Assembly: GCA_023246095.1 (NCBI GenBank)
Contig: JAHFJA010000001.1
Location: forward strand, 1,062-65,061
Direction of reading: 5' to 3'
DNA: 64,000 bases
From: a bacterium
GTDB taxonomy: Bacteria > Patescibacteriota > Patescibacteriia > JACQRZ01
Shown: one piece after another, positions 3,669 through 42,202 of the stretch
How the letters are laid out: every line of letters begins with the position of its first letter
Position numbering within the stretch: the stretch's first letter is position 1
Notes under the pieces: model-generated
Database searches by the model: none
What the model was told of the DNA's origin: nothing
What the model saw: the letters and a program-made list of their open reading frames with translations, nothing else
Program-made: the position numbers and the translations under genes

Positions 3669-4166
3669 TTACATTATAGAACCGTCATCTTCAAAATCAT
3701 TTGCGGAAAGTCGTCGAACCGCAATGCGAAGACATTTTTTATCAAAACCTTTCGTTAGCGGATGCAAAGTAAGCTGGGCAACACCATTATCTGTTTTCAG
3801 AACTACCACGCATAGCTCCCCGTTTCCATTAATGATTTTTTTACCAGGATTCACTAACCAGTGATCTTTAAATAGTTTTTCGGGGATTTGTAGCATTGTT
3901 GGTCCATCAGGCCAGTGTGACCACGAGGTATCATTAAACCAAGTGTCGCATTGTTCAGTCGTGTGGATTTCTATATCTATAGGGATAGCTTTGTAAATCA
4001 GTATTCCCAAGGACGGATCTCCGCAAAAATTTTCTTCGTTGATAGAGGGATCTATCACCTTCTTTGAGTCCTTGATTTGATCAAGAAACGGTAAGGTGTA
4101 ATCCACCCTAAACACTCTAGGGTCACTCCTAGAAACCTTCACTGGTCTTGTATCTACATCGAACAT
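3669..4166 (-). CDS. Hypothetical protein.
   Basis: 165-aa ORF with no recognised motif. Confidence 0.4.
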   Translation of the reverse strand: MFDVDTRPVKVSRSDPRVFRVDYTLPFLDQIKDSKKVIDPSINEENFCGDPSLGILIYKAIPIDIEIHTTEQCDTWFNDTSWSHWPDGPTMLQIPEKLFKDHWLVNPGKKIINGNGELCVVVLKTDNGVAQLTLHPLTKGFDKKCLRIAVRRLSANDFEDDGSIM

Positions 4167-4431
4167 TGTTTTTCCTCCTTTAGAAAAAACTTATAATTGT
4201 AAAGGTGCCTCTCTTGAGATGGTCTCCAAAAAAACTTTTGGTTCACCTTTTTCTTGTTTGGCAGTTTGCCATATTTATACCGTTTTGTCAAGCATACTCT
4301 CGACAGTCGATAGATGACCGTTTGTTGCATCATATACCTCGCTATCGCAATAATAATACTTTGAAGTGGCGTTGGATCCCAAAACAAAAAACACGCCTGA
4401 AGGGCGCATTTCTGCTAGCATCTGCTCACAA

Positions 4432-4576
4432 CTGTCTCTCTTGAACAAAATCCGAACTTTTTTTCAAGAGAATCCAGACGCGGAATTTTGATGCGCCTCC
4501 ATTATCCGCCAACTGGCGGAGACGGACGCCGGATTGGTACATGGCGGAATTCCCCCCACACCCCCCTTCCGCCATG
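4432..4576. repeat. IR-A: left copy of a 145-bp perfect inverted repeat; partner at 9917..10061.
   Basis: Reverse complement of 4432-4576 is identical to 9917-10061. Internal palindromes catggcggaa...ttccgccatg and ccgccagttggcgg; G6TGTG6 tract. Confidence 0.9.
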
Positions 4577-4642
4577 TTTTTGTATTACTAACAATATGCT
4601 TTTTGAGGAGAGTTTGCAAGAAGGCTATCAATGTTATTAAAA

Positions 4643-5260
4643 CTATCTACGCCATGGTGCAGGTGTCACGTCAAAAGTTGTCTGAGAGACGCCTCTTGGA
4701 AATTTCTCCATCATCGTTTTAAATATCACATCAAACACCTTTTCTGCCACATGTAAATTTAAATCATTAAAAATTTTATGTTCATCTTTATCAAGTTTAT
4801 TTTTTGTATTTTGAATATGAAGACGATTACGAACATCCCGCAAAAATTCTAGTGCTGTATAAAAATTTTTTGGTTGTTCAAAAAAATTATATTTCCTAGC
4901 TGTCGCTATGTAATGTTCAAATTTCTCAAGCTTCTTTTTTCGAAACTCAGCAACTTCTGTTTTGGTGACATTTGGTAGTTTGTCAGAAACATGTTCTTGA
5001 ATACGATCTACAAAATCATCCAGGAAGCACTCAATAATGGCGACAATCACCAGCATTATTGGTTTATTGAAATGCATCTTCCTTAAAGGAGGACTATCAT
5101 TTTTTGCATCATACAGCGTCCACAATATTTCCATATTATACAAAATGTTATCACCCTTTTTGAAGCTCCAAATAAAAGTAAAAATTGCTTTTGAAATTAA
5201 ATCTCGCTCTGATGATGTCATAAAATAAGTTAATGTGGTATAGAATACTATGTTTCTCAA
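4643..5260 (-). CDS. Hypothetical alpha-helical protein, possible HEPN-like (Rx6H: RDVRNRLH). Cargo of the IR-bounded element.
   Basis: 205-aa ORF, AT-rich. Motif LRDVRNRLHIQN. No other recognisable domain. Confidence 0.35.
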   Translation of the reverse strand: MRNIVFYTTLTYFMTSSERDLISKAIFTFIWSFKKGDNILYNMEILWTLYDAKNDSPPLRKMHFNKPIMLVIVAIIECFLDDFVDRIQEHVSDKLPNVTKTEVAEFRKKKLEKFEHYIATARKYNFFEQPKNFYTALEFLRDVRNRLHIQNTKNKLDKDEHKIFNDLNLHVAEKVFDVIFKTMMEKFPRGVSQTTFDVTPAPWRR

Positions 5261-5400
5261 GGCTTATCACACACATTATAAAGAAACTATCACGACAGGA
5301 ATAGACCACGGGTCTCTATATTGCTTATATACAACCGTGACAACTAAACTCTAGTTTAACCCTTATTTTATAAGCTTTTTTAACATTGCCTCTATTGCCT

Positions 5401-6882
5401 CTAAAAACCGAGTGTGTAATAAATATTGGTTGATGCACCGTGAGGTTTTATTACACCAGACTCTTTGAGATCCCGAAGGTCTTTATTTATGGTCGCTCTT
5501 GGTGTCTCCTTTAGAATCTTTTGACAATCACTAACTGTAAGCTTTCCCTTGATAAGCAATGAGTCAATAATTTTTATCTGACGTTCATTAATATTATGAT
5601 GTTTTGAACCAAGTAGTATTGCTTCAAAACTATTTACAGAATTTCTAAACAACGGCTCGGGTAAACCCCAATCAGACATTTTCTTTATGACTACATCAAT
5701 ACCACGACCATATTCTTCCAAATATCGCATATCTTTCAACCTCGCAGCAACCATGGAATTGCGACTGAATTGTGCTTCCTTAAGATTATCTACCGTGACA
5801 CCTGGAGGAAGTGAGCCAGGATTGGCAATTTCTATGCGATCTTGAAATACACGAATTTGTGTATATGTTTCAATAATTTTGTAATCACGATGAATAATAG
5901 CATTCGCTATTAACTCTCTAATAGCTTCTTCTGGGTATTCATACCGTTCAACACGTTTAGTACCCTCGATCACTGCATTTTTAGCAATATTTTTTAAAAC
6001 AAATTTATATACTTCATCAATTTGTGAATCAAGCGTACCAGCTATGTCTACTGCATCAATAATTTTAGAAGATGGATCACTACCAGCATAACGAATGCAA
6101 CGAATTACATAACGATCATATGGGCTTTTGTTTTGAGGTATCGCTTTTGCAAAAATCAGATAACCTCCGATAGTTGGTTTATATTGACCATCAAAAGATG
6201 CAATAATATTTAAATTTTCAAGCGTCACATCATCCACGGTAGGTGTAGCACCTCTTTGTATCTGTTCTTCACTTTGCTCGAGAAGTTTAATCACTTTTTC
6301 CTTTGCAATGTCTTCCTTGTTTGTATTCCGTGCCTCTGATAAATCAAATTGGAATTCCTTTGAAGTTGCAACGTAGGTCCTAAATTCATTATCAGTAATT
6401 TTCCTACTAGTATTACCCTCTCGAATATATGCACCATTAGGGAGCCCAATAGGACTAAAGTAACAGGGCATATAGTCTTTTGGACACTCAGGCACAAAGA
6501 CAGCTAATATAGTGACTCCTTCATACTCAATAACATGATATTCTGGCCGTAAAACAAAGCTCATTTTATCATTGAAATACTGCGTTAATTTCGTCTGCAT
6601 TTGGTCTAAATTCGTACAGCCAGTGACTTCATTTTTTTCTTGGTTCACTCCAAACACGACAAGACCCCCACCCCGACGATTAGCAAAAGCAGAGATAGTC
6701 CTCCAAATATCATTTGGAATATTATTTTTTGCGGTCTTAAACTCAAGGTCAGACAACTCACTTGATATTTCTAAACCGTATTTTATTTTTTTAAGTATTT
6801 CATCGTTTGTCATAAAACTATTTTTTGAACGTGCTATTTTTAGATGACCAATCCGTACACACAGAATGACCCGATCTGCCAA
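5401..6882 (-). CDS. AlbA_2 (Schlafen-like divergent AAA) + HATPase_c_4 + C-terminal wHTH protein; putative ATP-binding transcriptional regulator, RecG-C-terminal-like.
   Basis: N-terminus LEFKTAKNNIPNDIWRTISAFANRRGGGLVVFGV is typical of AlbA_2. Central GHKL-like region. C-terminal HTH (KLTVSDCQKILKETPRATINKDLRDLKESGVI). Confidence 0.65.
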   Translation of the reverse strand: MADRVILCVRIGHLKIARSKNSFMTNDEILKKIKYGLEISSELSDLEFKTAKNNIPNDIWRTISAFANRRGGGLVVFGVNQEKNEVTGCTNLDQMQTKLTQYFNDKMSFVLRPEYHVIEYEGVTILAVFVPECPKDYMPCYFSPIGLPNGAYIREGNTSRKITDNEFRTYVATSKEFQFDLSEARNTNKEDIAKEKVIKLLEQSEEQIQRGATPTVDDVTLENLNIIASFDGQYKPTIGGYLIFAKAIPQNKSPYDRYVIRCIRYAGSDPSSKIIDAVDIAGTLDSQIDEVYKFVLKNIAKNAVIEGTKRVERYEYPEEAIRELIANAIIHRDYKIIETYTQIRVFQDRIEIANPGSLPPGVTVDNLKEAQFSRNSMVAARLKDMRYLEEYGRGIDVVIKKMSDWGLPEPLFRNSVNSFEAILLGSKHHNINERQIKIIDSLLIKGKLTVSDCQKILKETPRATINKDLRDLKESGVIKPHGASTNIYYTLGF

Positions 6883-6884
6883 GA

Positions 6885-7493
6885 TTATTTATCATTGATA
6901 CTTTCTGACAGATCATGCATCAATATTACCAAATCTGCTACAGTTATAAAGGAAGGAAATACCTCCTTACCAGCTAGTGTATTGTCAATTGTCTTATTGC
7001 GCCAAATGACCGGGGCATCAAGACAATGTTCAAAATAAAAACTATTATTATGAGCCGATCCATTTCGAATATGCTTAACAAATCTAAAAATGTCCTCTTT
7101 GACCCAATATTTGTGATACTTGGAATACAAAGTTATATCAGATATACCCACCATCATCATTCTTGCCTGCCAATTTATTAATGGTGATAAGTCTGCCTGA
7201 ACCCTAGCACCAGCAAATTTAACGCTTGCCCTTACGTTAAAATCCTGAATTGCACTTTGTGCGGCATATTTTATGACAGGCAATCCATTAAAATCGACAG
7301 AAAGTCCGAGTTCTAACATCCCTCTCTCTTTTTTATGGTGGTCAACTAAAACCCTCTGAAAATCTTTCATAACCATCATATTCATGCCAACAAAAAAGAA
7401 TCTAAAATTTTCTTCAATTGGTCTGAATATCTCATGAATAAATATTTCTTTATCTTGTATACCTGACATAATTTTTACAAATACTCTACGCAT
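6885..7493 (-). CDS. Hypothetical protein with a HEPN-like Rx4H motif (HIRNGSAHNN).
   Basis: 202 aa. R-N-x3-H motif with a polar residue after Arg, as in HEPN RNases. Immediately downstream of the AlbA_2 gene, with a 3-bp gap. Confidence 0.4.
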   Translation of the reverse strand: MRRVFVKIMSGIQDKEIFIHEIFRPIEENFRFFFVGMNMMVMKDFQRVLVDHHKKERGMLELGLSVDFNGLPVIKYAAQSAIQDFNVRASVKFAGARVQADLSPLINWQARMMMVGISDITLYSKYHKYWVKEDIFRFVKHIRNGSAHNNSFYFEHCLDAPVIWRNKTIDNTLAGKEVFPSFITVADLVILMHDLSESINDK

Positions 7494-10193: not shown

Positions 10194-11813
10194 ATGGCGG
10201 AAATATCCAAAGCGACACACAATATAATTCATATAGCCACCTCTAATATGAATACGTTCTTTCTCTACGCTCGCAAATCAACGGATGAACCTGACAGGCA
10301 GATCCTTTCCATTGAGGCACAAATAACCGAACTTCGTGAATTTGCCCAGCGAGAACATCTTGATATCGTGGATACCTTTATTGAATCGCAAACAGCCAAA
10401 GAACCAGGGCGCCCCATATTCAACAAAATGCTTGATCGTGTAGAGAAAGGCGGTGCTAATGGTATTTTGGCGTGGCATCCTGATAGACTTGCTCGCAACA
10501 GTGTGGACGGAGGGCGTGTAATCTATCTCACCGACACGAGAAAGCTTGTCGACCTCAAATTCCCCACCTTTTGGTTTGATGCCACGCCACAGGGCAAATT
10601 CATGCTCAATATCGCATTTGGACAGTCAAAGTACTATGTAGATAATCTCTCGGAGAATGTAAAACGAGGATTACGGCAAAAAGTACGGCGAGGCGAACAG
10701 GTCGGACGAGCACCGATGGGATATCTCAATGATCTTGTGACAAAGAAGATGATACCTGATCCCCAACACTGTCGCCTCATCCGAAAAGTATTTGAGCTGT
10801 ATGCGACAGGCAATTATTCTCTCAAATCCCTCCGAGAGATTATCTTTGACGAAGGATTGATGAGTGGAACAGGCAAAAAGCTCTCTATTTCCATGATACA
10901 AAAAATCCTCACCAATCCATTTTATTATGGTGCGTTTCTCTTTAACGGAGAGCTTTTTGCGGGTACTCATGAACCATGCGTGTCAAAGAAACTGTTTGGG
11001 CAAGTACAAGCAATCCTGACAAGCAAGACAAATCCGAAAAAACGAGGCGAGAAGCAGTATCCACTTCGAGGTTTATTTATCTGTGGCGAGTGCGGATGCA
11101 GTATCACATCAGAAACACACAAAGGACATGACTACTATCGTTGTACCAAGAAAAAGGATGTAAAATGCTCGCAAAAATATATTCGCGAAGAGCTTCTCGC
11201 CCAACAACTATCAGAGATGATACAATCAGTTTCTTTACCCACAGATTGGGCAGAAAATATGCTTGAACAACTGGAAACAGACGAAACAAGTACCGCCCAA
11301 TCTGATGTCCTTTTCGCTCAAACCATTAAGGATCAGATAAAAATGTGTGAAACAAAACTGGATACCCTGCTGGACGCGCACCTTGAGCAGGTCATAACAA
11401 GGGATGAATATACCAGCAAGAAAAACAAGGTGATGTCTCAAAAAATGGATTTGGAGCAAACACTAAATGAATTTGAGCGAAAGGGCAACGCATGGCTCGA
11501 ACGCACTCGTGCGTTCATAAATACCGCTAATCAAGCGGAAAAAGTCGCTTTGGATGAAAATTTGTTTGCAAAAAAAGATTTTCTAAAAAAACACGGCTCG
11601 AACCGCCTCCTCGCCGACAAAACGGCTCGGGTGGATTTTACCAAACCATGGGATTTTGTTTTTGAATTCAGGGAAAAAATGGGGTTGGGTTCAATTGGGT
11701 TTCAAAACTCTCAAGCCCCCAAAGGGGGCGAAAGAGGGGGCATATACACACACCTGCGGGACATGGACTCGAACCATGATACCATCCTCCAGAGGGATGT
11801 GTCCTACCATTAG
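10194..11813 (+). CDS. Large serine recombinase (resolvase/invertase catalytic domain + recombinase domain + zinc ribbon).
   Basis: YARKSTDEPDRQILSIEAQ catalytic Ser motif. LAWHPDRLARN. GRAPMGY recombinase domain. CGECGC...YYRC zinc ribbon. The ORF reads without a stop through IR-C' into the tRNA, so the true C-terminus is uncertain. The true start may be the internal MNTFFLYARKST. Confidence 0.85.
   Translation: MAEISKATHNIIHIATSNMNTFFLYARKSTDEPDRQILSIEAQITELREFAQREHLDIVDTFIESQTAKEPGRPIFNKMLDRVEKGGANGILAWHPDRLARNSVDGGRVIYLTDTRKLVDLKFPTFWFDATPQGKFMLNIAFGQSKYYVDNLSENVKRGLRQKVRRGEQVGRAPMGYLNDLVTKKMIPDPQHCRLIRKVFELYATGNYSLKSLREIIFDEGLMSGTGKKLSISMIQKILTNPFYYGAFLFNGELFAGTHEPCVSKKLFGQVQAILTSKTNPKKRGEKQYPLRGLFICGECGCSITSETHKGHDYYRCTKKKDVKCSQKYIREELLAQQLSEMIQSVSLPTDWAENMLEQLETDETSTAQSDVLFAQTIKDQIKMCETKLDTLLDAHLEQVITRDEYTSKKNKVMSQKMDLEQTLNEFERKGNAWLERTRAFINTANQAEKVALDENLFAKKDFLKKHGSNRLLADKTARVDFTKPWDFVFEFREKMGLGSIGFQNSQAPKGGERGGIYTHLRDMDSNHDTILQRDVSYH
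11631..11753. repeat. IR-C': right copy of the ~124-bp inverted repeat; ends exactly at the 3' end of tRNA-Gln.
   Basis: Reverse complement of 10062-10185. The terminal cacacacc abuts ctgcggg (tRNA 3' acceptor strand). Confidence 0.85.
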
Positions 11814-11824
11814 ACGATCCCGCA
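11754..11824 (-). tRNA. tRNA-Gln (anticodon CUG).
   Basis: Minus strand: UGCGGGA acceptor pairs with UCCCGCA. Anticodon stem CAUCC/GGAUG with loop CUCUGGA. T-arm CAUGG-UUCGAGU-CCAUG. Discriminator G; no encoded CCA. Confidence 0.85.
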
Positions 11825-11847
11825 GTTCTAAGTACATGCGATAATTT

Positions 11848-13939: not shown

Positions 13940-16456
13940 CTAAAGAACGGTTTGCTTTGCACGATCAAGTATTTCTTGCTCCACGATAGTCCTATCCCGA
14001 CCATGTTTGAGACGAGATAATTGACGAATTGCCTCTGCAACGTCAAGACTACCATGAGCAGGAGCAAACGTGCGCATGTTAAACGGGCGCGCAGCAGTAC
14101 CATTGATAAGCAATCTGACATACGCATGAGTTCGTTCAATGTTTATCACGTCAAATTGATTGAACACGGGCGCCATCTGTTTTGAGACCAGCTCAGCATC
14201 ATCTACACCAACGCGAAAGTTCACAATCGTACCCACGTTTCCAAAGACTGCATCTCGTACTTTCGTATCCCCTGCTTTTGGTGTCAACTGTGCAATATAT
14301 TGGTGACCCATGGTCAGACATAACCGATATTTTCGCGCCTCAGAAAGAATCACTGCGATACTGTCGGTAATAAAGTTTTGGAACTCGTCGATATAGAGAA
14401 AGAAATCATGTCTCTCACTTTCTGGTATTTCACCGCGCGATAGTGCAGCCATGGTAATCTTACTCACCATGATGAGTCCCAACAAGTACGCATTCAAATC
14501 TCCCAATTTACCTTTACTCAATTTGACTAACAAAATCTTTTTCTCATCCATGAGTTCACGAATATTGAATGCACTGTTTTGCTGACCTATAATAGGACGC
14601 ATGATGTCATTGGCAACAAACTGGTTCAACTTTGAAGTAATATACGGCACCATATTAGCCAGTGCTGCCTCTCCTCCCGCCTTTTGCGCCTCCTTAACCC
14701 AAAAATCATGTACGACCGGATTTTTACACTTGGAAAGTTTGTATTTACGAAACTCTTCATCGGCCAACACTTTTGAGACTTCCATCAACGTAGACCCGGA
14801 CTCTGGGTCTTCCATGATCAAAAGCAACGCATTTCGCAAATATTGTTCAAACATTGGACCACCCGTCGAACGCAAATCATACAACTTATCCAATATCATG
14901 ATAAATTCATTGATAACAAACGTTTTTTGTTCAGGAAATCGAGGATCAAATTCCAATAAGTTTAAACCCTTTGGTCGTTCGTAATCAGCCGGATCAAACA
15001 AAACAACATCATCAGCGCGTTCAGGAGGGATAGTGCTCAGGATGTGATCAATTGCTTCGCCGTGAGGATCAATGAAACAGCAACCTTCACCATTACGAAT
15101 ATCTTGAACGATCATATTTTGCATGAGCGTAGTCTTTCCCGATCCTGTCATACCAATCACATACATGTGACGCCTTCGATCATCCGCACGTATGTGGACA
15201 GGAGTAATAATGCCACGATAGAGGTTTTCTCCCAGCAAGACTCCTTCCGTCGGCATATTTTGTGGTGGGGGTGCGCTTCGTGATTTGAGCCATTCAATAT
15301 TCGGCGTTTCTGTGGTGCTCAAAGGCAAATGAAAGAGACTTGCCAATTCTTCCGCATTAAGAATGAATGACTGACGATTGTCAAAATGCCGATAAATTGA
15401 GTGTTGCACGACAGACGGTTTTTTCGCTCGCTTAATTTTAATTATGGCTACCCCTGATTCCGGCCCAGTATATTGAGCAAAGGCGTTGGTTACATTGTAT
15501 ACCTGCATATCCGCAAGAGCTTGCGTTTGTGCTGAGCCAATGACACGAATATTGGTTTGAAAACCTGCCTTTGACCCTTTTTCCTCAACAGCTTTTACCA
15601 AATCCTGCTCGAGTGGAGACATACGATGCTCTGTGGGGCCGGATTTATCGCTGGATGACTTCAACGTATCCATAGTGGCCGATCCCGTCTTTTTTAAAAC
15701 TCCCCAAGCAAGATCACCCGCCGAGCCAATATTGGCAGCACTCATTGCTTTTTTTACCGTCTTGCCGTGCTGCATTTCCTTGGCAAACGCCTGTCCTTTT
15801 GATCTCCACGATGGCGGTGCGGTGCGTATCGTCATCTGAATCACAACACCTTGCCCCTGCGCTACTTGGCTCAACGCATTTGTTAGAGCATTTAATGGAT
15901 CGGAGTCCATTTTACGGTAGGTGCGTAAAGGAAAAATCCAATGTTTACTAAGTTGTAGTGCGGCTGCACTGACACCCCCATGAGGGAGAAAAATATTATA
16001 ATCAGCGGTCTCTTCAACATATGCTGACGGGTACTGAGCAAGTAATTGTTGTTCAAAAAAAGATTGAAGATAGTCGGGAACGATGACAAAAAACTTTATC
16101 AGTCCATCAATAGCAACTATTTCAAAAGTAATCTCATCTTCTCGTCCAAAAAAATATGCTTTCCATTTGTCACGGGGACGCAATGAGCCCAGTGAAAGAT
16201 ACAGCGATTCTGCAACTGCCACTACCTCTTTATATTCTCCTTTTCCCCCTTTTTCTTCCTCTTCTTCCCGCGACCCCTCTTTTGGCACTTTTATTTGAAG
16301 TATTTTTTTCTGTAAGGCATTGTGTTCGACATATCGTTGCGTGAGCACAGATCGGAGTACGGACAGCCCTAGCACTGCCACTAATGCGGCAACACCGCCC
16401 CACCATAAAACAGACAGAAGGATGTTACCCGCAATGAGGGAAATAATAATATCCAT
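13940..16456 (-). CDS. Membrane-anchored P-loop ATPase of the TraG/VirD4/TrwB (type IV coupling protein, FtsK/HerA superfamily)-like family.
   Basis: Two N-terminal TM helices. Walker A GMTGSGKTT. DPHGE. Walker B FFLYIDEFQNF. 838 aa. Confidence 0.6.
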   Translation of the reverse strand: MDIIISLIAGNILLSVLWWGGVAALVAVLGLSVLRSVLTQRYVEHNALQKKILQIKVPKEGSREEEEEKGGKGEYKEVVAVAESLYLSLGSLRPRDKWKAYFFGREDEITFEIVAIDGLIKFFVIVPDYLQSFFEQQLLAQYPSAYVEETADYNIFLPHGGVSAAALQLSKHWIFPLRTYRKMDSDPLNALTNALSQVAQGQGVVIQMTIRTAPPSWRSKGQAFAKEMQHGKTVKKAMSAANIGSAGDLAWGVLKKTGSATMDTLKSSSDKSGPTEHRMSPLEQDLVKAVEEKGSKAGFQTNIRVIGSAQTQALADMQVYNVTNAFAQYTGPESGVAIIKIKRAKKPSVVQHSIYRHFDNRQSFILNAEELASLFHLPLSTTETPNIEWLKSRSAPPPQNMPTEGVLLGENLYRGIITPVHIRADDRRRHMYVIGMTGSGKTTLMQNMIVQDIRNGEGCCFIDPHGEAIDHILSTIPPERADDVVLFDPADYERPKGLNLLEFDPRFPEQKTFVINEFIMILDKLYDLRSTGGPMFEQYLRNALLLIMEDPESGSTLMEVSKVLADEEFRKYKLSKCKNPVVHDFWVKEAQKAGGEAALANMVPYITSKLNQFVANDIMRPIIGQQNSAFNIRELMDEKKILLVKLSKGKLGDLNAYLLGLIMVSKITMAALSRGEIPESERHDFFLYIDEFQNFITDSIAVILSEARKYRLCLTMGHQYIAQLTPKAGDTKVRDAVFGNVGTIVNFRVGVDDAELVSKQMAPVFNQFDVINIERTHAYVRLLINGTAARPFNMRTFAPAHGSLDVAEAIRQLSRLKHGRDRTIVEQEILDRAKQTVL

Positions 16457-32914: not shown

Positions 32915-34135
32915 TTAAAACGTTATTTTCTCCTCCCGATATCGAGTACGTTCCTTATTGGGTGACCGGAGTCGGAAATAGCGCGAAGGCATTTTTACGT
33001 GAAGTAGCGCTGATATTTTTTCTATCATTTGCAAAAATTCTTTGTTGGGCGTTTCAAAAGGAAAATTCAATTGCAGATCGATGGAATTTGTATTCTCTAA
33101 CAAGAGAATTATGCCGCTCTCCTCGATGAAATCAAATGGTTTTAATACGTTGGATATTGGCGATAAATGCTTCCAGCGAAAGTTCAAATAACAAGTAATC
33201 CACGATACGCAATCCCTCGTATATTCTTGACCATGAGCCGTATTTGCATATTTAGGAAATGGCTTCTCAGCTTCAAGAAAATCAATGCACTGTTCAAGCA
33301 TACTAAAAGGCAGTTGCCAATTTAGCTGTGAACGAAGAGGGCCTTTACTTATGAATTTTGGTTCTCCAAATAGAGCGATTGCCCTCTTGCATAGGGGTTT
33401 TGTGCTTTGGCCATTTGTATCTTTATCAGTTTCCACTATATGGAACTGAACTGCCTCGCTGTCGTCAACGAGGGTAGCAAATTCTTCAAAAAATGTATCC
33501 AATTCTTTGATTAGTTTCTTCTTATCACGCATATATACCGCCTGAAATCCATCCGCATGAGTGCTATAAGTGAGAAACGTAGGGAACGTATATTGGAATG
33601 GCGCAGGATTTTTGACGTTCAAGAAAAATTCCAGTCGTGCACCGTGTAATATCGTATTAAATCTAGCCCCATTCTTTAATTTATATCCATCAAGATCGGA
33701 AGGAGACCGTAACACTGTCTTTATGGCTTCAGCAGTTTTCAATTCATAAAGGCTTGGCAAAACATGCTCTGTGAGCGCATTCTTCAATCTTTGAATACTT
33801 TCCTTTTCGGTACAGTTGTAGATTTCGAATATCTCAATAGCTTCCTTTCGAAGCATTACCTCTTCCGCGCGTGCTCTCATATGACATTCATACTCATGCG
33901 GCCATTCAGGGACGGTGACTAATGTCACTGGCGGAAGACATCGAATATAGACACTCGCATTGAGATAATGGCTACCTCCGATACCCGTCTGAAAATTTAC
34001 AATAAGTATTGTTTCTGGAGTATGAAGATACCATGTCGAAGCGATTTTTTTGAATCCCTTTGGCTTCAATACTTCATGAATAGCTTGACGATACTTGTTG
34101 TGAATTGGGTCTGATGCCATATATATGCTGTACAT
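32915..34135 (-). CDS. Hypothetical protein, DUF4304-like N-terminus.
   Basis: 406-aa ORF; N-terminus IHNKYRQAIHEVLKPKGFKKIASTWYLH. Confidence 0.35.
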   Translation of the reverse strand: MYSIYMASDPIHNKYRQAIHEVLKPKGFKKIASTWYLHTPETILIVNFQTGIGGSHYLNASVYIRCLPPVTLVTVPEWPHEYECHMRARAEEVMLRKEAIEIFEIYNCTEKESIQRLKNALTEHVLPSLYELKTAEAIKTVLRSPSDLDGYKLKNGARFNTILHGARLEFFLNVKNPAPFQYTFPTFLTYSTHADGFQAVYMRDKKKLIKELDTFFEEFATLVDDSEAVQFHIVETDKDTNGQSTKPLCKRAIALFGEPKFISKGPLRSQLNWQLPFSMLEQCIDFLEAEKPFPKYANTAHGQEYTRDCVSWITCYLNFRWKHLSPISNVLKPFDFIEESGIILLLENTNSIDLQLNFPFETPNKEFLQMIEKISALLHVKMPSRYFRLRSPNKERTRYREEKITF

Positions 34136-34209
34136 TCAAGTGTTACTACGTTATTGCTGATAATACTGGCAGCTTCCAGGGTGAAAAGCAAATAATGTAC
34201 AAGGAAAGA

Positions 34210-34872
34210 TTAGATTTGGATAAAGTATCCAACACAACGAGAAACCTTTGCTACTTCCGTTCCACTGAGGGTGGTATTTCTATTTGTGAGCCATTTAGAG
34301 AGCTTATCTTTACCAAAGACTTTTTCAATACACTTCTTGGCACCTGATTTTTGACTGTTATAAAACGAATAGAACGTATCGCTTTGAGAAATTGCCGTGC
34401 TCACCGGCTTGATCATATCCGTAACAGAGCTTTTTTTATTTTTTTTGCTAGTCGCACTGGTTTTTTTTACTGACGTCGACAACACAGTCTGAACACCAAC
34501 TCCAAGTTTCTTTCCTTCACGTAATAACAATTTCCATGTGGTCGGTCCCACATATCCATAACCAGTACTATCAGCTGTTCCTTGACACGCAATATCGTGT
34601 GCACACTGAAAACGCTTGAGTGCCGCAAGAGTGCCAGAGCTGAATGTGTCGGTTTCATGCCCCGGTGACCCTTCACCTGTTCGTGAAATAATAAACCCAT
34701 CGTTATTTAGTATTTTTTGCAGCACCATGACCTCAGAACCTCGTGTACCTATACCCATTCCTGACGAGGCGGCATATACATTTTGCCCAAGTGCTATCGC
34801 ACAGATTATGACAATAATAACCAATAAACGGCCCATATAGAGTAGTAATAATTTCACCATACAGTCTATCAC
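34210..34872 (-). CDS. Secreted protein with a peptidoglycan-binding (PG_binding_1-like) domain.
   Basis: Signal or anchor. GSEVMVLQKILNNDGF...GTLAALKRFQ. Confidence 0.5.
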   Translation of the reverse strand: MIDCMVKLLLLYMGRLLVIIVIICAIALGQNVYAASSGMGIGTRGSEVMVLQKILNNDGFIISRTGEGSPGHETDTFSSGTLAALKRFQCAHDIACQGTADSTGYGYVGPTTWKLLLREGKKLGVGVQTVLSTSVKKTSATSKKNKKSSVTDMIKPVSTAISQSDTFYSFYNSQKSGAKKCIEKVFGKDKLSKWLTNRNTTLSGTEVAKVSRCVGYFIQI

Positions 34873-34944
34873 TTTCCTTGTATATCAAAAACACCCCAAA
34901 GTGTTAGTAAATAAAGCCGACCCAGCATTCTGAATTCTCGCCGT

Positions 34945-35907
34945 GTGCGCTATAATAACTACATGAAAAAGATTAGTCTTACAGCCATAGTGACCGCGAG
35001 TATCATTCTACTTATGGGTGTAAGTTTTCTCTATCTCAAGAAAAAAGAAATCGCATCGCCAAACAACATTGCCTGTACCCAAGAAGCAAAGCAATGTCCC
35101 GATGGTAGTTATGTTGGTCGTACAGGGAAAAATTGCGAATTTACTGATTGCCCCGCTATAGCACCCAAAACAATACCACCAACCCCGCAACAACCACCCT
35201 CAACACCGCCCCCTACACCAGTGCCAACACCAGTGCCCTTACCTAAACCAGCCCCAACACCAACACCTCCCCCAAGCGGAGTAAGTGAATGCACATCAGA
35301 CAAAGACTGTCCCTCGTCGCTCGTTTGTCACGCCGGCACGTGTACTGAACCGATAACTGCTCAGTGTAGTGGACCTGACGACACGAGCTGTTCCCCTGGT
35401 TATCGCTGTATTCAGAGCTGCGGCCCTCCTGTTGCAAGAATAGGAGACCCTCCCCCACCATATTATTGTGAACTCGAAGAAGTAGCCTCAAAACCTCGCA
35501 ACTGTCCTATTTGTTTAGCCTCAAACACAGAAGTTGCTACACCAACCGGTAATCATAATGTCAAAGATATAAAAATGGGAATGCTTATATGGTCGCTTAA
35601 CAAAAATGGAGAAAAGGTTGCAAGTACCGTAATAAAAATATCACACACTCCTGTTCCAAGAACACATCGAGTAATACATCTTACACTTTCAGATAAAAGA
35701 GAAGTATGGGTATCACCTAATCATCCGACTGTAGATGGCAGAACGATTCAAGAACTACAGAAGGGAGACCTGTATGATAGATCATACGTTCAATCGACAG
35801 AGCTGATTCCTTATTGGGATACCAATACCTACGACATCCTATCAGATAGCGATACTGGTTATTACTGGGCGAATGGAATTTTATTAGGAAGCACACTTAA
35901 AAAATAA
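34945..35907 (+). CDS. Membrane-anchored Cys/Pro-rich protein with a C-terminal Hint (Hedgehog/intein-like) domain.
   Basis: TM anchor. PTPxP linker. Cys-rich modules. Hint block CLASNTEVATPTG...VSPNHP...YWANGILLGS. Confidence 0.55.
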   Translation: MRYNNYMKKISLTAIVTASIILLMGVSFLYLKKKEIASPNNIACTQEAKQCPDGSYVGRTGKNCEFTDCPAIAPKTIPPTPQQPPSTPPPTPVPTPVPLPKPAPTPTPPPSGVSECTSDKDCPSSLVCHAGTCTEPITAQCSGPDDTSCSPGYRCIQSCGPPVARIGDPPPPYYCELEEVASKPRNCPICLASNTEVATPTGNHNVKDIKMGMLIWSLNKNGEKVASTVIKISHTPVPRTHRVIHLTLSDKREVWVSPNHPTVDGRTIQELQKGDLYDRSYVQSTELIPYWDTNTYDILSDSDTGYYWANGILLGSTLKK

Positions 35908-36028: not shown

Positions 36029-36064
36029 TAAAAAAATTCTACTGTTTTTACAGTAGAATTTTCA
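36029..36064. terminator. Bidirectional rho-independent terminator between convergent genes.
   Basis: Perfect 10-bp stem aattctactg / cagtagaatt with loop ttttta. A-run 5' and T-run 3'. Confidence 0.7.
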
Positions 36065-36166: not shown

Positions 36167-38614
36167 TCACCCACAAAGTAGTGGCATTACAAGAATAAGT
36201 TGCTCATACAACATAACACACGCTAAACGTCGGGCCTTTTTGTAACTCGCATGAGCTATGGGATCCGACCGCACCACGCTACCATTAATGTTCGCTTGAG
36301 CGATTACTTCTGTAAAATTTCCAACTGCTTTTTCTTCATACACAACATCAAATCTATAGGTCTTTTTTAGATTATCCAATAAATTAAGATTCTGTTTGAA
36401 GGTTGGCGAGTCATAAAATAGATTTTCATCATTTGCTGTATATGCTCGTAATATTGCCAGTAGTTGTACTGAAGCCAGTTTGCGTGCAGTTACTGAATTT
36501 CCCCCATAAACAATATCTGTTTGAAATTGGTTTCCCATAAATGTCATGGAGGCCTGACCTGCAAAGATATCAGGCTGACCAAACTGAACCCGCGGATTTA
36601 CTTCAATCAAAGGTATAACACCAAAATGATTTAAAGCAAATGTATTGAGTTTACCAATGGGATCTTCTTCGAACACTTGTTTGGGAGCGTTAATTCTTTC
36701 AACTTTCATTGAACCAACTAACTGTGGTTGTTTAGTTTCAACTGATTGCTTTGAAAGATCGTCAACATCTGTTTTTCCTTTATCGGTCTTCTCTGTCTGC
36801 AAACCAGCTCTTTCCATAGCCCCCAAAAACATGTTCATTGTTGCCTGTGTTATTGTTTCTGACTCGAGGGAAAGTACTGATTGGATCATGTGTTTTCCTG
36901 TATGAAAAACACCAAATTGACGCCGCAGAAATCCCTCAAATATAGTTTTTTCACCGGAAATATATTTTAACCGCGAAATACTATACCCCCGCTCCTCCAG
37001 CTCCTCTTTTGCAAGTTTGAGCATTTCTCCTTTATTCCCAAGGGCAATCGTATAACGTACCTCTCTTTTTTCAACAAATGAAACCTCAATTTTTGCCCGT
37101 GTTACAATGTCTTTATTTGTAATCGTACTTTGTGATTCATTCGATCGAGCTGTTTTTAGGCTTTCCACAAGATACGGAGCTCTCATACGCTCTTCGTGGG
37201 TCAATGATTGAAGGATCTTTTCCCATGTCATCCCCAAAAAACGCATTGAAAGAATTTTTTGTTCTACGGCGTGATAGTACTGTGGAGCAGCGATAAGCCC
37301 ACCATTAAATACACAATATTGACCAAATATTCCCAAGACACTTGCAAGATTATGACGCCTACTCTGGAATACACCATCAACGACCAACAAATCTTCATTG
37401 GGTACACCTGAAAATCGCATTCCACGGCCAAGCGCTTGTTTCATTTTCCATTCAGAACCCAAACCGTATGGACGCAGCATTATGACAAGATTTATGTTTG
37501 GTATATTCAAACCCTCTCCGAGTTTTTCACAACTAAACATGAGAGTAATTTCGCCCTCCCTGAATTTTCTCATCTGTTCATCGAACGTCTCACGATCCAT
37601 ACTTCCGTCAACATATGATGCGCAAAAATGTTTTTGAGGTCCATACACCCTGTGTATAGCCGGCATAAGTTCTTTGTTGCACATGTCTGCATAGTATTGC
37701 GCGTCCGCCACGCAAACCGTAAACCCAATACCTTTGCGATCTATCACCCCAGTAGCCCCTAAATCACGTAACAATCGATCATCGCTAAGATATATCTCTT
37801 TGAGGACCTCAAATCCTAAATGAGGATTTTTACCAATGATTCTAGAAACGGAAACTTCATTAAGGATTGTTTGCGCTCCCCAACGCACAGCATCGGCTCC
37901 CGATATATCTATCTTTGTCCTTGCCTCGATCCAACGAACAGGTTTTAGTTGACCTTCTTGAATCAACTCAACCATGCTTTTGTGATAACTCAAAAACCTT
38001 TTGTAGTTTGCTCCAACCACTTGTACACCCTGATCTTCATCGGATACGACAGGATCAAAGAAAAAGTAAGGAGAACGCATTAAAGGACCTTGCACTGTTC
38101 CACTTACCCCGATACAAAATGCCGACGTTTTGTTAATGAGATCAGCAACACGTTCCGTAACATTGTGACATTCATCCAACAAAATCAAACCAATATTCTT
38201 CTTAAAGTTTTCAACAAACGTTTTCTCATTAAATCCATAATAGGTCATAAATGTAACAAGCGGATCTTTTACAAGTTCATCGCGATACTCTCTGGAAGTC
38301 AGGTTTCCACTCACCAGAGTTCTTATACTTGTATCCGGTATATCCTTTAACCAGAGACGCGCCTCACCAATATCCAATCCTGCACCATCGTTTTCCTCAT
38401 CAGATACTTCGTCAGGAGTAAAGAGAAACTGTTTTACTAGGTTCGTTCTTGAGGTAAGAACAAGAACTTGCTGTGTTAAACCATGTCGACGTATTGTATT
38501 TATGTAGGCGCGAACAAGTGCTCCTAGTAGCATAGATTTCCCTGCACCTGTTGGTATTTCAGCTGCCGGGCGTGTATAGCCCCGACGAAATACTTCACAC
38601 ACAGCTAAGATCAT
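36167..38614 (-). CDS. SF2 DEAH-type helicase with two tandem C-terminal dsRNA-binding domains.
   Basis: Motif I IPTGAGKS. II LLDECHNV. III VSGTVQ. VI QALGRGMR. C-terminal dsRBD-like blocks ending GGNSVTARKLASVQLLAIL and SYKKARRLACVMLYEQL. Confidence 0.6.
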   Translation of the reverse strand: MILAVCEVFRRGYTRPAAEIPTGAGKSMLLGALVRAYINTIRRHGLTQQVLVLTSRTNLVKQFLFTPDEVSDEENDGAGLDIGEARLWLKDIPDTSIRTLVSGNLTSREYRDELVKDPLVTFMTYYGFNEKTFVENFKKNIGLILLDECHNVTERVADLINKTSAFCIGVSGTVQGPLMRSPYFFFDPVVSDEDQGVQVVGANYKRFLSYHKSMVELIQEGQLKPVRWIEARTKIDISGADAVRWGAQTILNEVSVSRIIGKNPHLGFEVLKEIYLSDDRLLRDLGATGVIDRKGIGFTVCVADAQYYADMCNKELMPAIHRVYGPQKHFCASYVDGSMDRETFDEQMRKFREGEITLMFSCEKLGEGLNIPNINLVIMLRPYGLGSEWKMKQALGRGMRFSGVPNEDLLVVDGVFQSRRHNLASVLGIFGQYCVFNGGLIAAPQYYHAVEQKILSMRFLGMTWEKILQSLTHEERMRAPYLVESLKTARSNESQSTITNKDIVTRAKIEVSFVEKREVRYTIALGNKGEMLKLAKEELEERGYSISRLKYISGEKTIFEGFLRRQFGVFHTGKHMIQSVLSLESETITQATMNMFLGAMERAGLQTEKTDKGKTDVDDLSKQSVETKQPQLVGSMKVERINAPKQVFEEDPIGKLNTFALNHFGVIPLIEVNPRVQFGQPDIFAGQASMTFMGNQFQTDIVYGGNSVTARKLASVQLLAILRAYTANDENLFYDSPTFKQNLNLLDNLKKTYRFDVVYEEKAVGNFTEVIAQANINGSVVRSDPIAHASYKKARRLACVMLYEQLILVMPLLCG

Positions 38615-38638
38615 CTCTTTTTGAACAGGCCTCCAGGT

Positions 38639-38938
38639 TCAATTAATGCCAAATCTCATTGGATATTGAATATGTTGCAACTGTTCCAAAAAAACATTCA
38701 TGAGCGGTATTATCATTTGCTGATAGTTCTTTTTAAAATCAGAATAGACTTTCGATTTACCGCTTACATTTTGAGGCTTGTTTGCGTTTTCCAATATAAT
38801 ATTGGCGATCTCGTACAGTTTCCTGTCACCTCGTATATCAAAGCCATAACCCGCGGATACCCGCACTAAATTTGTCAATGCACTAATGTTATTACCCAGT
38901 AGAGCCATGCAAAAAACCTCCTTCACGATATATACCAC
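38639..38938 (-). CDS. Small hypothetical protein between the exoribonuclease and helicase genes.
   Basis: 99-aa ORF, same strand, 25-bp gap to the helicase. Confidence 0.35.
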   Translation of the reverse strand: MVYIVKEVFCMALLGNNISALTNLVRVSAGYGFDIRGDRKLYEIANIILENANKPQNVSGKSKVYSDFKKNYQQMIIPLMNVFLEQLQHIQYPMRFGIN

Positions 38939-39069
38939 AAATTACCCCTAAAGGGCGCTCACACAATACCATACTTTTCAGAAAAGTCAAGTGGCATCGA
39001 ACAAAAAAAGAGTGTGTTATATACACACTCTCGTCGTTATTTTTCTACATTTTAAGACAAATAGAGGCA

Positions 39070-40878
39070 TTAATGCGGCGGAAGCATTGAGAGCACTGAC
39101 TCCGCTGCAAAATGTTCTGCATTTTTTTTCGTACCAGCAGAACAGGGGTTTGATTGATATCGTTTTTCAGGCGTAGAGACAGTCACCACAATAGTAAAAA
39201 TCGACCGATGTGGAGATCCTTTTTGTGAAATCACTTCGTACGCAGGACGGTTCCATTTTTTCTGTTGACATAATTCCTCCAATCGACCCTTAAAGTTGTC
39301 GGATGGCGGTGTGTTAAGTGATGGTAAAACTTCTGGAATCAAAAAATCATTTTTATTGTCTTCTTTTTCACTTTCAACACCAATTATTGTACCGATTAAA
39401 CTCACGGCGGCAGATTGCCGAGAATTTTTTAATGTATTTCCAATACACACCTTCGAACTGCACATATTGTCATTAAAAACTATACTTGCCATACTGGAAA
39501 ATCCTCCAACAACCTCATATGATTCGTATTCTAAATTGGCAAAGGGGATAGATTTATCCTGACAAGCCATTACGAGTGTCGAGACGGCTTTTTCTTTATG
39601 ATTCATCAAATGCGAAAATATCTCACTACGTATACGTTTCCACACTAAAGAATCAAATTGCAAGGTTTTAAACAATATGAAGTAAATATCTTGCACAGGC
39701 AAATCTCCTGTGTTAAGACGCCTAATTACTTCATCTTCCAGAGGTTGAGGTGGCTCAACGTTTTCGCATGCAACACGGACTACCCTATGAAACTCAACGG
39801 TACTTGCATCCTGAATTTGACTATCCTGTAAGAGCTGTTCTCCCTGCTCGCGCCTCTTAAATGCAAAATGTTCGTCTTTTTTCATGCGTTCCTGATCCAT
39901 CAACGTATTCAGATTTATCGCAAGTGTATCCAATTCTTCCGGTCTATAGGGAGTAGGATCATTTTGCAGAACTGCAAGCAAAATCCTTTGATTTACCAAA
40001 TCAGCATACCTACGGATAGGTGATGTAAAATGGCAATACACAGGAAGGTTTAACGCAAAATGGCCACGTACAAAAGAATCATAAGTCGCTCTGTTCAGAA
40101 TCAGACTGAATCGATGGCGCAAAGTCTCCGGATTCGATATAACAGAGCAAGCCCCCATGGATGCCAAATCTTCTCTCAGTATATCTCGATCTGACGCCAC
40201 AACATGTGCTGTGTGATTTCTATACAATGCTTGTGTTCTTTTCTGTACTAAATATTCTGCCACCATTTGATTGGTCAGAATCATAAACTCCTGAATAATC
40301 TGATATGCATTTATGGAATCAGGGGTATTTAGACGAATTAGTTGTCCATCCTCATTGCACACCCATCCATCCTGCATATCATACATCACAAGTGCTCCAG
40401 ATTCAGAACGTTTTCGTGCTAATCCTTTTGCAAGGGTATTCGCCACATGCAACATTGCATAGAACTCAAATGTAGTATCCTTAAGACTCTCATTCACTTG
40501 TTTATAATTTAACTTTGCCACACTCTTTCCATGTGTTTGCTGTATATCTACAGAACGACACACAAAATCTTTATCAATACCCATAGTCACCTGAAAAACG
40601 CGCTTTGAGTCGTCAGGTAGTAAACTTAACTCTCCCTCGGATAGTTCCCTTGGAAGCATTGGACTACTCCCAGCTGAAGAATACCTTGTGAACCCCTTTC
40701 TTGAAGCTTTCATGTCAATCAATGTCCCCTTCTTCACAGCAAAAGCAACATTCGCAATGGAGACGGAAAGACAATAGCGCCATCCGTCCACATTTTCTTC
40801 AACCCAGATAGCATCATCAAGATCTTTTGACGACTCACCGTCTATAGTTACCCCAATAACATTTACGTCTTCTGTCAT
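39070..40878 (-). CDS. RNase II/R-family (RNB domain) exoribonuclease with two tandem C-terminal dsRBDs; no N-terminal cold-shock or S1 domains.
   Basis: RNB motifs DLDDAIWVE and HFTSPIRRYADLVNQR. dsRBD-1 ends GNTLKNSRQSAAVSLIGTI. dsRBD-2 is LCQQKKWNRPAYEVISQKGSPHRSIFTIVVTV...GTKKNAEHFAAESVLSML. Confidence 0.7.
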   Translation of the reverse strand: MTEDVNVIGVTIDGESSKDLDDAIWVEENVDGWRYCLSVSIANVAFAVKKGTLIDMKASRKGFTRYSSAGSSPMLPRELSEGELSLLPDDSKRVFQVTMGIDKDFVCRSVDIQQTHGKSVAKLNYKQVNESLKDTTFEFYAMLHVANTLAKGLARKRSESGALVMYDMQDGWVCNEDGQLIRLNTPDSINAYQIIQEFMILTNQMVAEYLVQKRTQALYRNHTAHVVASDRDILREDLASMGACSVISNPETLRHRFSLILNRATYDSFVRGHFALNLPVYCHFTSPIRRYADLVNQRILLAVLQNDPTPYRPEELDTLAINLNTLMDQERMKKDEHFAFKRREQGEQLLQDSQIQDASTVEFHRVVRVACENVEPPQPLEDEVIRRLNTGDLPVQDIYFILFKTLQFDSLVWKRIRSEIFSHLMNHKEKAVSTLVMACQDKSIPFANLEYESYEVVGGFSSMASIVFNDNMCSSKVCIGNTLKNSRQSAAVSLIGTIIGVESEKEDNKNDFLIPEVLPSLNTPPSDNFKGRLEELCQQKKWNRPAYEVISQKGSPHRSIFTIVVTVSTPEKRYQSNPCSAGTKKNAEHFAAESVLSMLPPH

Positions 40879-41197: not shown

Positions 41198-41845
41198 TTA
41201 ATATTGGTCTGGAAGTCTCTTTTTTATCTCCTTATATGTAATATCTATAAGAGAAAAAATCTCATTTTCAACAGCATTTAAAAGTGTACTTACGAGAATA
41301 GGTATTGTCTCTTCCCCTGGTTTAAACTCTGCAAATTGATACAGCTTTAATCTATTAACAATTTGATTTTTATATTTATCTACTTCCTTTATCCAGCCTT
41401 TAATAATAGGAATGTCCGTAAACAACATTGAACGATAATCAATCTTAAGTGTCTTTTCTATTAATGAATTGTCGGGATAAAAATCCAATCGCTCCACAAA
41501 ATCAGAAAAAATTACACCTTGTTGACGTAACTCACCATATGACACGTGTTCACTTGTGGTAACGAAGAATTTTCCATAGCCATGCCAACATCTCCATGTC
41601 CTAGCTCCAAGTTCATAGATATCACTAAAATGATAAATAAGAATGTGATTGCTTAGCTTGTGTATTTTTCTCAGTAGATGTAGAGCTTCAAAGACTTCCA
41701 CATTTGCAATGTCTAAGAGTATAACATCAGATTGTGTTACATCTTCAAAGGAATCTGAAACAGTTTTTCTTATACACTCATGACCTTCATGTGTTGTACT
41801 CGTATTTCCACTTGGTTTGGACGTAACAACAATAAACTTTCTCAT
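41198..41845 (-). CDS. Hypothetical protein in an AT-rich tract.
   Basis: 215-aa ORF; weak hairpin plus T-run downstream (~41100-41135). Confidence 0.4.
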   Translation of the reverse strand: MRKFIVVTSKPSGNTSTTHEGHECIRKTVSDSFEDVTQSDVILLDIANVEVFEALHLLRKIHKLSNHILIYHFSDIYELGARTWRCWHGYGKFFVTTSEHVSYGELRQQGVIFSDFVERLDFYPDNSLIEKTLKIDYRSMLFTDIPIIKGWIKEVDKYKNQIVNRLKLYQFAEFKPGEETIPILVSTLLNAVENEIFSLIDITYKEIKKRLPDQY

Positions 41846-42116: not shown

Positions 42117-42127
42117 CTTCTCGAAAT

Positions 42128-42197
42128 AGTCCCACGGGGAATCGAACCCCGATTTGGTCCGTGAGAGGGACCCGTCCTAACCGTTAGACGATGGGAC
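42128..42197 (-). tRNA. tRNA-Glu (anticodon CUC).
   Basis: Acceptor GUCCCAU / GUGGGAC. Anticodon stem GGUCC/GGACC with loop CUCUCAC. T-arm CGGGG-UUCGAUU-CCCCG. Confidence 0.85.
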
Positions 42198-42202
42198 CAA
42201 AT

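Follow-up and report, generated by a model that had tools for sequence, protein, structure and literature searches.

In exoribonucleases of the RNase R type the accessory domains control access, and unwinding is performed by a tri-helix wedge (PMC5714204). The RNase R of Helicobacter pylori is without unwinding features and relies on the RhpA helicase (PMC8136821), mtEXO pairs an RNB nuclease with a superfamily 2 (SF2) helicase (PMC5758563), and the human, interferon-induced HELZ2 joins ATP-dependent duplex displacement to RNB 3'-5' degradation of structured RNA (PMC10516660). Here we describe a stretch of 64,000 nucleotides (the window) from contig JAHFJA010000001.1 of an uncultured member of the Patescibacteriota, in which two minus-strand genes span positions 36167-40878. 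The upstream gene encodes an RNB exoribonuclease with two C-terminal double-stranded RNA-binding domains (dsRBDs), and the downstream gene a helicase which is predicted to end in two units of the same fold (Table 1). The window itself thus contains one intact nuclease of an uncharacterised family beside a helicase gene with a premature stop. We propose, tentatively and with somewhat less than even confidence, that the locus specifies a duplex-RNA exonuclease with an occasional helicase partner, the two genes belonging to the metabolism of duplex or structured RNA and being transcribed separately.

Pfam analysis of the 602 amino acid nuclease revealed an RNB match which runs from position 10 to the last of the 326 positions of the model. 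Both motifs, TIDGESSKDLDDAIW and HFTSPIRRYADL, can be aligned with E. coli RNase R and RNase II, and the motif I aspartates (TIDGESSKDLDDA) together with HFTSPIRRY match these two enzymes residue for residue, so that none of the four motif I aspartates conserved in the family is missing, nor is its motif IV arginine. Because these residues align, the protein looks, from its sequence, like a catalytically intact and competent RNB enzyme. Its similarity to E. coli RNase R (5xgu, E=5.7e-29) and RNase II (2id0, E=4.4e-22) is clear, but it falls far under the NCBIfam equivalog cut-offs (199.8 bits versus 597.85 for RNase R; it is also under the RNase II cut-off). The RNB domain is homologous to that of RNase R and RNase II. 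The helix-turn-helix, both domains of the cold-shock type (CSD1, CSD2), the S1 domain and the K/R-rich tail of those enzymes are lacking; RNB begins at residue 10, and Pfam found no CSD or S1 anywhere in the 602 residues. An all-helical domain, occupying the place of S1 in RNase II/R, and two dsRBDs follow RNB instead. The minimal RNB protein with canonical motifs and without cold-shock or S1 domains, as described in the first-pass annotation of this DNA, is therefore confirmed. In addition, the segment aligned to the tri-helix wedge has ~18-20 residues fewer than its counterpart in either E. coli enzyme.

The tail of the nuclease (residues 310-602) was modelled with AlphaFold2 from a 59-sequence alignment. 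The model (pLDDT 92) contains the helical domain followed by two alpha-beta-beta-beta-alpha units. In a Foldseek search against the PDB the tail retrieved tandem-dsRBD proteins on top (TARBP2, 3.5e-7, then DCL4, TRBP, Loqs and R2D2), and TM-scores against single dsRBDs reached 0.81 (Xlrbpa, 1di2). The two units match each other in hhalign with 99.4% probability. The second is canonical, its loop reading GSPH and its alpha2 opening with KKNAE, and its region (residues 522-597) is also matched by the RNase III model TIGR02191 (E=2.7e-10). The first is divergent, with part of the basic alpha2 motif kept (LKNSR) and the GPxH loop absent. Both are dsRBDs by fold and by profile match, as the first-pass annotation had read them by eye, and its expectation of RNB plus two Pfam dsrm domains held for RNB and the second dsRBD, with the first unit going unmatched. 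Prokaryotic dsRBDs are seldom discussed beyond RNase III, which likewise joins a nuclease to a canonical C-terminal dsRBD; there, however, an endonucleolytic domain is followed by one dsRBD, whereas the present protein combines an exonucleolytic RNB domain with two.

Proteins of this architecture are not restricted to the window. Among the best 120 nuclease matches, out of thousands returned, 93 possess RNB and dsrm, and their hosts include cyanobacteria (Acaryochloris and Scytonema), rhizobia (Agrobacterium and Neorhizobium), actinobacteria (Glycomyces), Methanocella and a Nanoarchaeia metagenome-assembled genome (MAG). Their database names go no further than "RNB domain-containing ribonuclease" or "ribonuclease R". 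In PLSDB, 43 plasmid records contain a match covering at least 80% of the nuclease query, many of them Acaryochloris plasmids and Rhodococcus megaplasmids, on which the genes are multi-copy and lie near toxin-antitoxin and transposase genes; phage records yielded RNB-core matches only. As the first-pass annotation had supposed, the architecture appears to be without prior description, none being found in the searchable literature. Within the RNase II/R family the RNB-dsRBD proteins form a broad and widespread branch, as yet uncharacterised, which has tandem dsRBDs in place of the cold-shock and S1 domains and is found in bacteria, including lineages like the Candidate Phyla Radiation, in archaea and on large plasmids. 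The branch bears on the question of RNase R-like enzymes in cyanobacteria, whose existence is left open in a review of cyanobacterial RNA decay (PMC10989914). Two of the plasmid genes, on Acaryochloris pMB07 (L045) and A. marina pREB1 (L047), lie within ~1 kb of plasmid recA; a RecD-like helicase is found near the pREB1 copy, and HicAB and transposases near that of pMB07.

The product of the downstream gene was annotated as an 815 amino acid SF2 DEAH helicase. Its assignment to SF2 stands, with Pfam matches to ResIII and Helicase_C, and the Walker A (PTGAGKS), motif II (DECH) and motif VI (QALGRGMR) sequences are invariant in the family alignment. Motif II is thus of the DExH type but not literally DEAH, and the 815 residues are the remainder of a gene of 913 codons. 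DECH is also the motif II of RIG-I-like helicases. The best profile match was to phrog_16 "DNA helicase" (1.5e-34), and when the family profile was run against PDB sequences, RadD (1.5e-10) and SauUSI (9.4e-10) came first, then the type I R subunit (HsdR), UvrB and XPB, with eIF4A, LGP2 (1.8e-3) and MDA5 (7e-3) ranking below that group. Since only the RecA2 motif region aligns to solved helicases, this ranking is weak evidence on the substrate. Pfam returned ResIII, Helicase_C and DEAD only, and none of the accessory domains of RIG-I, Dicer or the DEAH/RHA helicases. Because RadD and SauUSI rank higher and these domains are absent, we do not place the protein in either the RIG-I/Dicer or the DEAH/RHA family, and the Dicer/RIG-I-like logic originally suggested for the locus finds no counterpart in its helicase core. 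RIG-I-like receptors and Dicer possess Hel2i insertions and a C-terminal, PAZ or RNase III domain, none of which was detected by Pfam in the window helicase. DHX9 and MLE resemble it in joining an SF2 DExH helicase to tandem dsRBDs; their dsRBDs, however, are N-terminal and their core is of the DEAH/RHA type with HA2 and OB domains, whereas here the dsRBD units are C-terminal and neither HA2 nor OB_NTP_bind was matched.

The C-terminal part of the helicase (ORF residues 430-815; ORF, open reading frame) was also modelled with AlphaFold2, from a shallow 5-sequence alignment which gave an overall pLDDT of 63. The last 165 residues (pLDDT 70-91) form two alpha-beta-beta-beta-alpha units; the folds which the first-pass annotation expected AlphaFold to reveal are thus seen at the C-terminus of both proteins. 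Again tandem dsRBDs led the Foldseek list (TARBP2, 2.2e-6, then DRB4, MLE, Loqs and NF90, to 6e-4), the MLE dsRBD1/2 structure 5ztm being among the top matches (E=1.6e-5). With family sub-alignments as queries, hhalign matched the units to the Pfam-validated second dsRBD of the nuclease at 97.0% and 92.9% probability (97.5% and 96.2% in a re-run). Pfam dsrm is below threshold in the window copy, so that of the helicase core plus two dsrm domains anticipated from Pfam only the core was recovered; the relatives P0165 (24.1 bits) and P0158 (25.2 bits), however, exceed the dsrm cut-off of 23. Model, Foldseek, hhalign and these two relatives together support the assignment, and the helicase can be taken, on predicted structure, to end in two dsRBD-fold units. 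Their residues are another matter. Neither unit has the GPxH loop and the KKxAK motif is degenerate, unit A keeping one family-conserved lysine and the YKKARR of unit B not being conserved in relatives; RNA binding therefore does not follow from the units themselves. In the two longest relatives, P0122 and P0123, ~200 extra C-terminal residues (A1 alignment columns ~1080-1285) may, judged by eye, represent two further dsRBD-like repeats, which would give four units versus two in the window.

The family to which this helicase belongs is lineage-specific and very rare. Four close relatives were found among 5.8 billion clusters, a number to which a profile search added none, and an exhaustive HMMER search with the post-core region gave 12 representatives among 1.84 billion. 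Viral and JGI metagenome contigs contained no close relative, alignment-based scans of them giving distant cores only. Its tandem dsRBD folds are of interest since a helicase of this arrangement is otherwise known from eukaryotic DHX9/MLE and Dicer-type proteins.

Inspection of the reading frame revealed two genes rather than three. A separate protein of 99 amino acids had been placed between the nuclease and the helicase; this ORF shares the frame of the helicase ORF, from which it is parted by one TGA and eight sense codons, and it is the N-terminus of the helicase, cut off by the TGA. The 815 amino acid ORF begins abruptly, with motif I, although its few relatives are 989-1090 residues long, and in an alignment with relatives the junction GIN*TWRPVQKE corresponds to GILRSWRPTQKE, GIDRDWRQTQRE and GISRQWRKTQDE. 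In tblastn the alignment of the orthologue P0159 (L049) runs straight across the TGA, and at the several loci examined the orthologues are uninterrupted; in the window copy the frame is broken directly before the W-R-x-x-Q-x-E stretch upstream of motif I. An alternative genetic code was considered and rejected, for TGA is a normal stop in this genome (it ends 5 of 46 long ORFs, including that at the ftsI/murF ATGA overlap) and the aligned residue in relatives is arginine. Assembly error is unlikely, since the Logan assembly shows the same base and the gene is called as split in the ENA assembly too, although both may stem from the same sample. An ATG with GGAGG 15 nucleotides upstream lies after the TGA and is a candidate re-initiation site. 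From the sequence, the window helicase would be one of three things: a recent pseudogene, the source of a leaky read-through product, or a split protein.

How might such proteins act? We infer substrate and mechanism from the domains and catalytic residues of the nuclease. Since accessory domains gate access in RNase R-type enzymes, a nuclease without CSD and S1 that is tethered by dsRBDs should attack RNA that is structured or duplex, beginning at its 3' end: the dsRBDs probably dock it on A-form duplex regions, whereupon a nearby 3' end would enter the RNB channel and be degraded 3' to 5'. The shorter wedge segment could limit intrinsic unwinding and so make a helicase useful. An intact helicase would then probably unwind for whichever nuclease adjoins it, by analogy with RhpA-RNase R or Suv3-Dss1. 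In RhpA-RNase R and yeast mtEXO (Dss1 + Suv3), too, an RNB exonuclease with reduced accessory domains acts with a separate SF2 helicase on structured RNA. RhpA, however, is a DEAD-box and Suv3 a Ski2-like/DExH RNA helicase, in contrast to the ResIII-type helicase with C-terminal dsRBD folds described here, and the present pair is known from adjacency in two lineages, its genes being apparently not co-transcribed and not consistently linked. HELZ2 shares the RNB domain with our pair but is a single eukaryotic polypeptide with an SF1-type helicase, zinc fingers and no dsRBDs. Two observations, the recurrent adjacency and the unusual dsRBD tails common to both proteins, suggest that nuclease and helicase may cooperate, and if they do so, this would be a new bacterial way to degrade structured RNA.

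The adjacency recurs once. Beside the helicase P0123 lies a 589 amino acid gene (L002:5863-7632) whose product shares 35% identity with the window nuclease (E=1e-82) and possesses RNB and a marginal dsrm match. It is found on the same strand, downstream of the helicase, so that the order is reversed relative to the window, and the flanks differ; with both genes ~35% identical to those of the window, this is a second, rearranged occurrence at deep divergence. The other helicase loci are different. The gene for P0124 is embedded in the S10 ribosomal operon and converges on that for a 437 amino acid protein (X; L005:4856-6169), and a four-gene insertion (L005:1253-6169), comprising a 105 amino acid ORF, DAGK, P0124 and X, splits the operon between rplB (L2) and rpsS (S19). 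The locus of P0159 is syntenic with the window (mraZ-rsmH-ftsI-murF), and the intact helicase gene is preceded by a 604 amino acid non-RNB gene (L049:6084-7898). This was considered as an RNB orthologue and rejected, having no tblastn or Pfam match; it is homologous to X of L005 (23% identity, E=1e-22), and X consequently adjoins the helicase in two lineages. Protein X has no Pfam, PDB sequence or PADLOC match, and dsRBD-like units or internal repeats in it were rejected at hhalign probabilities below 1%. P0165 is arranged tail-to-tail, with a 3-nucleotide gap, with the gene for a 381 amino acid SNase-domain protein (L051:11309-12454, also L052; Pfam 1.1e-19). P0122 has no nuclease neighbour and no X, and none of RNB, X and SNase was detected in the fragmentary region downstream of P0158. 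In that region (L048:3546-11546) the called genes are short pieces, such as a Pep_deformylase of 54 and an Inositol_P of 67 amino acids, which points to pseudogenes, a poor assembly or another genetic code. The loci of P0157, P0125 and P0158 are uninformative on neighbours.

A number of these results weigh against the reading that we favour. A terminator-like hairpin and a promoter-like site, both called by consensus pattern scans only, separate the nuclease and helicase genes and make an operon unlikely, and co-expression is not obvious; the gene order, too, is not conserved, being reversed in the P0123 lineage. The first-pass annotation's view of co-directional genes forming a module is accordingly right as to strand but probably not as to operon structure. 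Among the helicase loci examined an RNB gene is the neighbour in two (the window and P0123), X in two, SNase in one and none in one (P0122), and no related helicase lies within 8-10 kb of any of 8 further RNB-dsRBD loci, taken from MAGs, archaea and plasmids. The highest scores of the helicase core are to DNA-acting helicases (RadD, SauUSI and phrog_16), the dsRBD units of the helicase are without the canonical RNA-contact motifs, and its gene is interrupted in this genome, where the nuclease therefore evidently functions without an intact partner. The terminator, the fact that the helicase is broken and the number of nucleases that stand alone show that any partnership is facultative at most. 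The two are genuinely but incompletely linked: the neighbours of the helicase vary, and the nuclease is usually alone. The pairing that the first-pass annotation proposed to look for elsewhere thus exists, at ~35% identity in one further lineage, although most RNB-dsRBD and other helicase loci are without it, and the pair is rare and not the widespread conserved housekeeping pair which that annotation had set against its own reading.

Much the same facts might be explained by two unrelated neighbours, the nuclease being a stand-alone enzyme, perhaps the substitute for RNase R/II in this small genome, the helicase an independent, decaying DNA or RNA gene, and the shared tails a coincidence or the result of local domain exchange. 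The signals between the genes, the nonsense codon in the helicase beside an intact nuclease, and the usual absence of a helicase next to RNB-dsRBD genes all agree with this, as does the fact that in L049 the helicase also stands beside murF, with a different neighbour. We nevertheless regard it as rather unlikely, since the adjacency is found again in a second lineage in another order and with other flanks, two such chance adjacencies having a probability of <1e-3 by a rough estimate which assumes ~10 helicase clusters and no more than one or two nuclease copies in each genome, and since tandem dsRBDs, otherwise rare in prokaryotes, are common to both partners.

Perhaps, as the first-pass annotation ventured, the locus is antiviral. 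In such a surveillance scheme the helicase, as a dsRBD-bearing sensor, would recognise duplex RNA (replication intermediates or convergent transcripts) and act with a swappable nuclease effector, be it RNB-dsRBD, SNase or X. The partners of the helicase do vary, two of them being nucleases, and the SNase neighbour of P0165 matches the PADLOC candidate model SNc+LTD (1.2e-11). On the P0123 contig genes for an OLD-family ATPase/TOPRIM nuclease and a serine recombinase (3860-6899) lie 2-5 kb upstream of the helicase-RNB pair, which suggests a variable or defence-type region; P0124 and X are inserted in the S10 operon; and the RNB-dsRBD genes are multi-copy on Acaryochloris and Rhodococcus plasmids near toxin-antitoxin and transposase genes. 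The interferon-induced HELZ2, moreover, unites helicase and RNB activities (PMC10516660). Against this, no PADLOC-DB 2.0 model matches the RNB protein or X, and the matches of the helicase, like those of its relatives, are to the generic core only (mREase_IV 7.4e-7, typeIV_DinG 1.9e-5 and PbeA). The neighbourhoods are mainly housekeeping, no att repeats or integrase were found at this locus, the helicase is interrupted here, and its core is related to DNA-type helicases. Its divergence is also of housekeeping level: between the window and L049 the identities are 41% for MurF and RsmH, 38% for MraZ, and 31% for both FtsI and the helicase. Having diverged like the core genes while staying beside murF, the helicase seems to descend vertically in the clade, which suggests, on sequence comparison, that it is not part of a mobile defence island; the OLD-TOPRIM and recombinase genes near the P0123 pair, the S10 insertion and the multi-copy plasmid distribution are signs to the contrary. 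Together with the many RNB-dsRBD genes that have no helicase nearby, these points leave a role in defence neither supported nor excluded, and the surveillance scheme improbable. A still wider version of it, in which sensor helicases of lineages like the Candidate Phyla Radiation recruit adjacent, interchangeable effectors (RNB-dsRBD, SNase or X) for prokaryotic duplex-RNA surveillance, and stand-alone plasmid nucleases represent a related anti-dsRNA or plasmid-competition activity, we consider quite improbable. If true, it would be a prokaryotic counterpart of the helicase-plus-dsRBD logic of Dicer, RIG-I or DHX9, and a sensor helicase with swappable effectors would bear on the evolution of dsRNA-based immunity. 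The original reading of the domains was good; their interpretation as a module goes too far.

The ranking of the helicase core raises one further scheme, in which DNA or RNA:DNA hybrids (R-loops or primers) would be the substrate of the helicase, the dsRBD-like units would read A-form hybrids, and the RNB nuclease would remove the freed RNA. The preference of the family profile for RadD, SauUSI, the type I R subunit, UvrB, XPB and phrog_16 fits this scheme, and so do the non-canonical helicase units and the plasmid RNB-dsRBD copies near recA and a RecD-like helicase. We consider it very improbable: alignment to solved helicases is limited to the RecA2 motif region, from which the substrate cannot be read, and every structural neighbour of the C-terminal units binds dsRNA.

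Table 1. Features of the nuclease-helicase locus (window positions; aa, amino acids; nt, nucleotides; AF2, AlphaFold2)
Feature	Position	Strand	Remarks
RNB-dsRBD exoribonuclease gene, 602 aa	39070..40878	-	ATG at 40878, GGAGG 8 nt upstream; stop codon TAA
RNB catalytic domain, aa 10-306	39961..40851	-	Pfam RNB E=4.9e-63; DxxxxxDxDD motif and HFTSPIRRY
All-helical linker domain, aa ~313-426	39601..39942	-	AF2 pLDDT >90; no Pfam match
dsRBD1, aa ~428-499	39382..39597	-	AF2, hhalign, Foldseek
dsRBD2, aa ~529-598	39085..39294	-	Pfam dsrm aa 530-598, E=4.9e-13; AF2, Foldseek
Intrinsic terminator-like hairpin, 10-bp stem and T-run	39008..39032	-	38 nt past the RNB stop codon
Promoter-like site, TTGACT, 16 nt, TG-TATTGT (extended -10)	38963..38990	-	Consensus match only; precedes helicase ATG
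Full helicase gene, 913 codons, one in-frame TGA	36167..38908	-	ATG at 38908, GGAGG upstream
Helicase N-terminal 89 codons	38642..38908	-	Aligns to N-termini of P0122, P0123 and P0124
In-frame TGA	38639..38641	-	Arg in three closest relatives; precedes conserved W-R-x-x-Q-x-E stretch
Helicase ORF as called, 815 aa	36167..38614	-	Downstream part of interrupted gene
SF2 core, ResIII and Helicase_C	37325..38614	-	Pfam ResIII E=6.3e-9, Helicase_C E=1.9e-11
Post-core, mostly helical region, ORF aa ~431-651	36662..37324	-	Family-specific; low-confidence model
dsRBD-like unit A, ORF aa 652-728	36431..36661	-	AF2, Foldseek, hhalign
dsRBD-like unit B, ORF aa 737-814	36173..36406	-	AF2, Foldseek, hhalign; YKKARR at alpha2 start
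Terminator-like hairpin, 14-bp stem	36032..36063	-	Downstream of helicase
tRNA-Glu(CTC)	42126..42199	-	Between murF and 215-aa ORF; context only

The nuclease gene has its own upstream region of ~320 nucleotides. The locus had been described as an AT-rich tract next to tRNA-Glu; the dip in GC content is modest (0.39-0.41 in the two genes versus ~0.42 in the window, only 41-42 kb falling to 0.33), and the tRNA lies 1.25 kb upstream of the RNB gene with a 215 amino acid ORF intervening. This ORF (41198-41845), in the lowest-GC kilobase of the region, has no family match and is conserved only in assemblies of the same genome. A genomic island anchored in tRNA-Glu was considered and rejected, given that no att-like direct repeats flank the region or the tRNA, no integrase was found near the locus and the GC dip is merely mild. 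An Rfam scan returned two tRNAs as its sole matches.

Downstream of the helicase (32915-35907) are genes for a 320 amino acid Pro-rich protein, which is encoded on the opposite strand and has a weak Hint domain, for a PG_binding_1 protein and for a DUF4304 protein of 406 amino acids; none of the three resembles the partners found at other helicase loci. The rest of the window is ordinary, with DnaK, ClpB, PriA and the dcw cluster. At 10194-11825 lies the gene for a large serine recombinase (Resolvase, Recombinase and Zn_ribbon_recom), the 3' end of which overlaps tRNA-Gln (11753-11825, opposite strand), and the adjoining 4-8 kb region has a GC content of 0.35-0.37 and includes a Schlafen AlbA_2/HATPase_c_4 protein (5401-6882); together these may constitute an integrated element. 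An 838 amino acid protein encoded at 13940-16456 carries TrwB/VirD4-type coupling-protein and HerA-like ATPase signatures.

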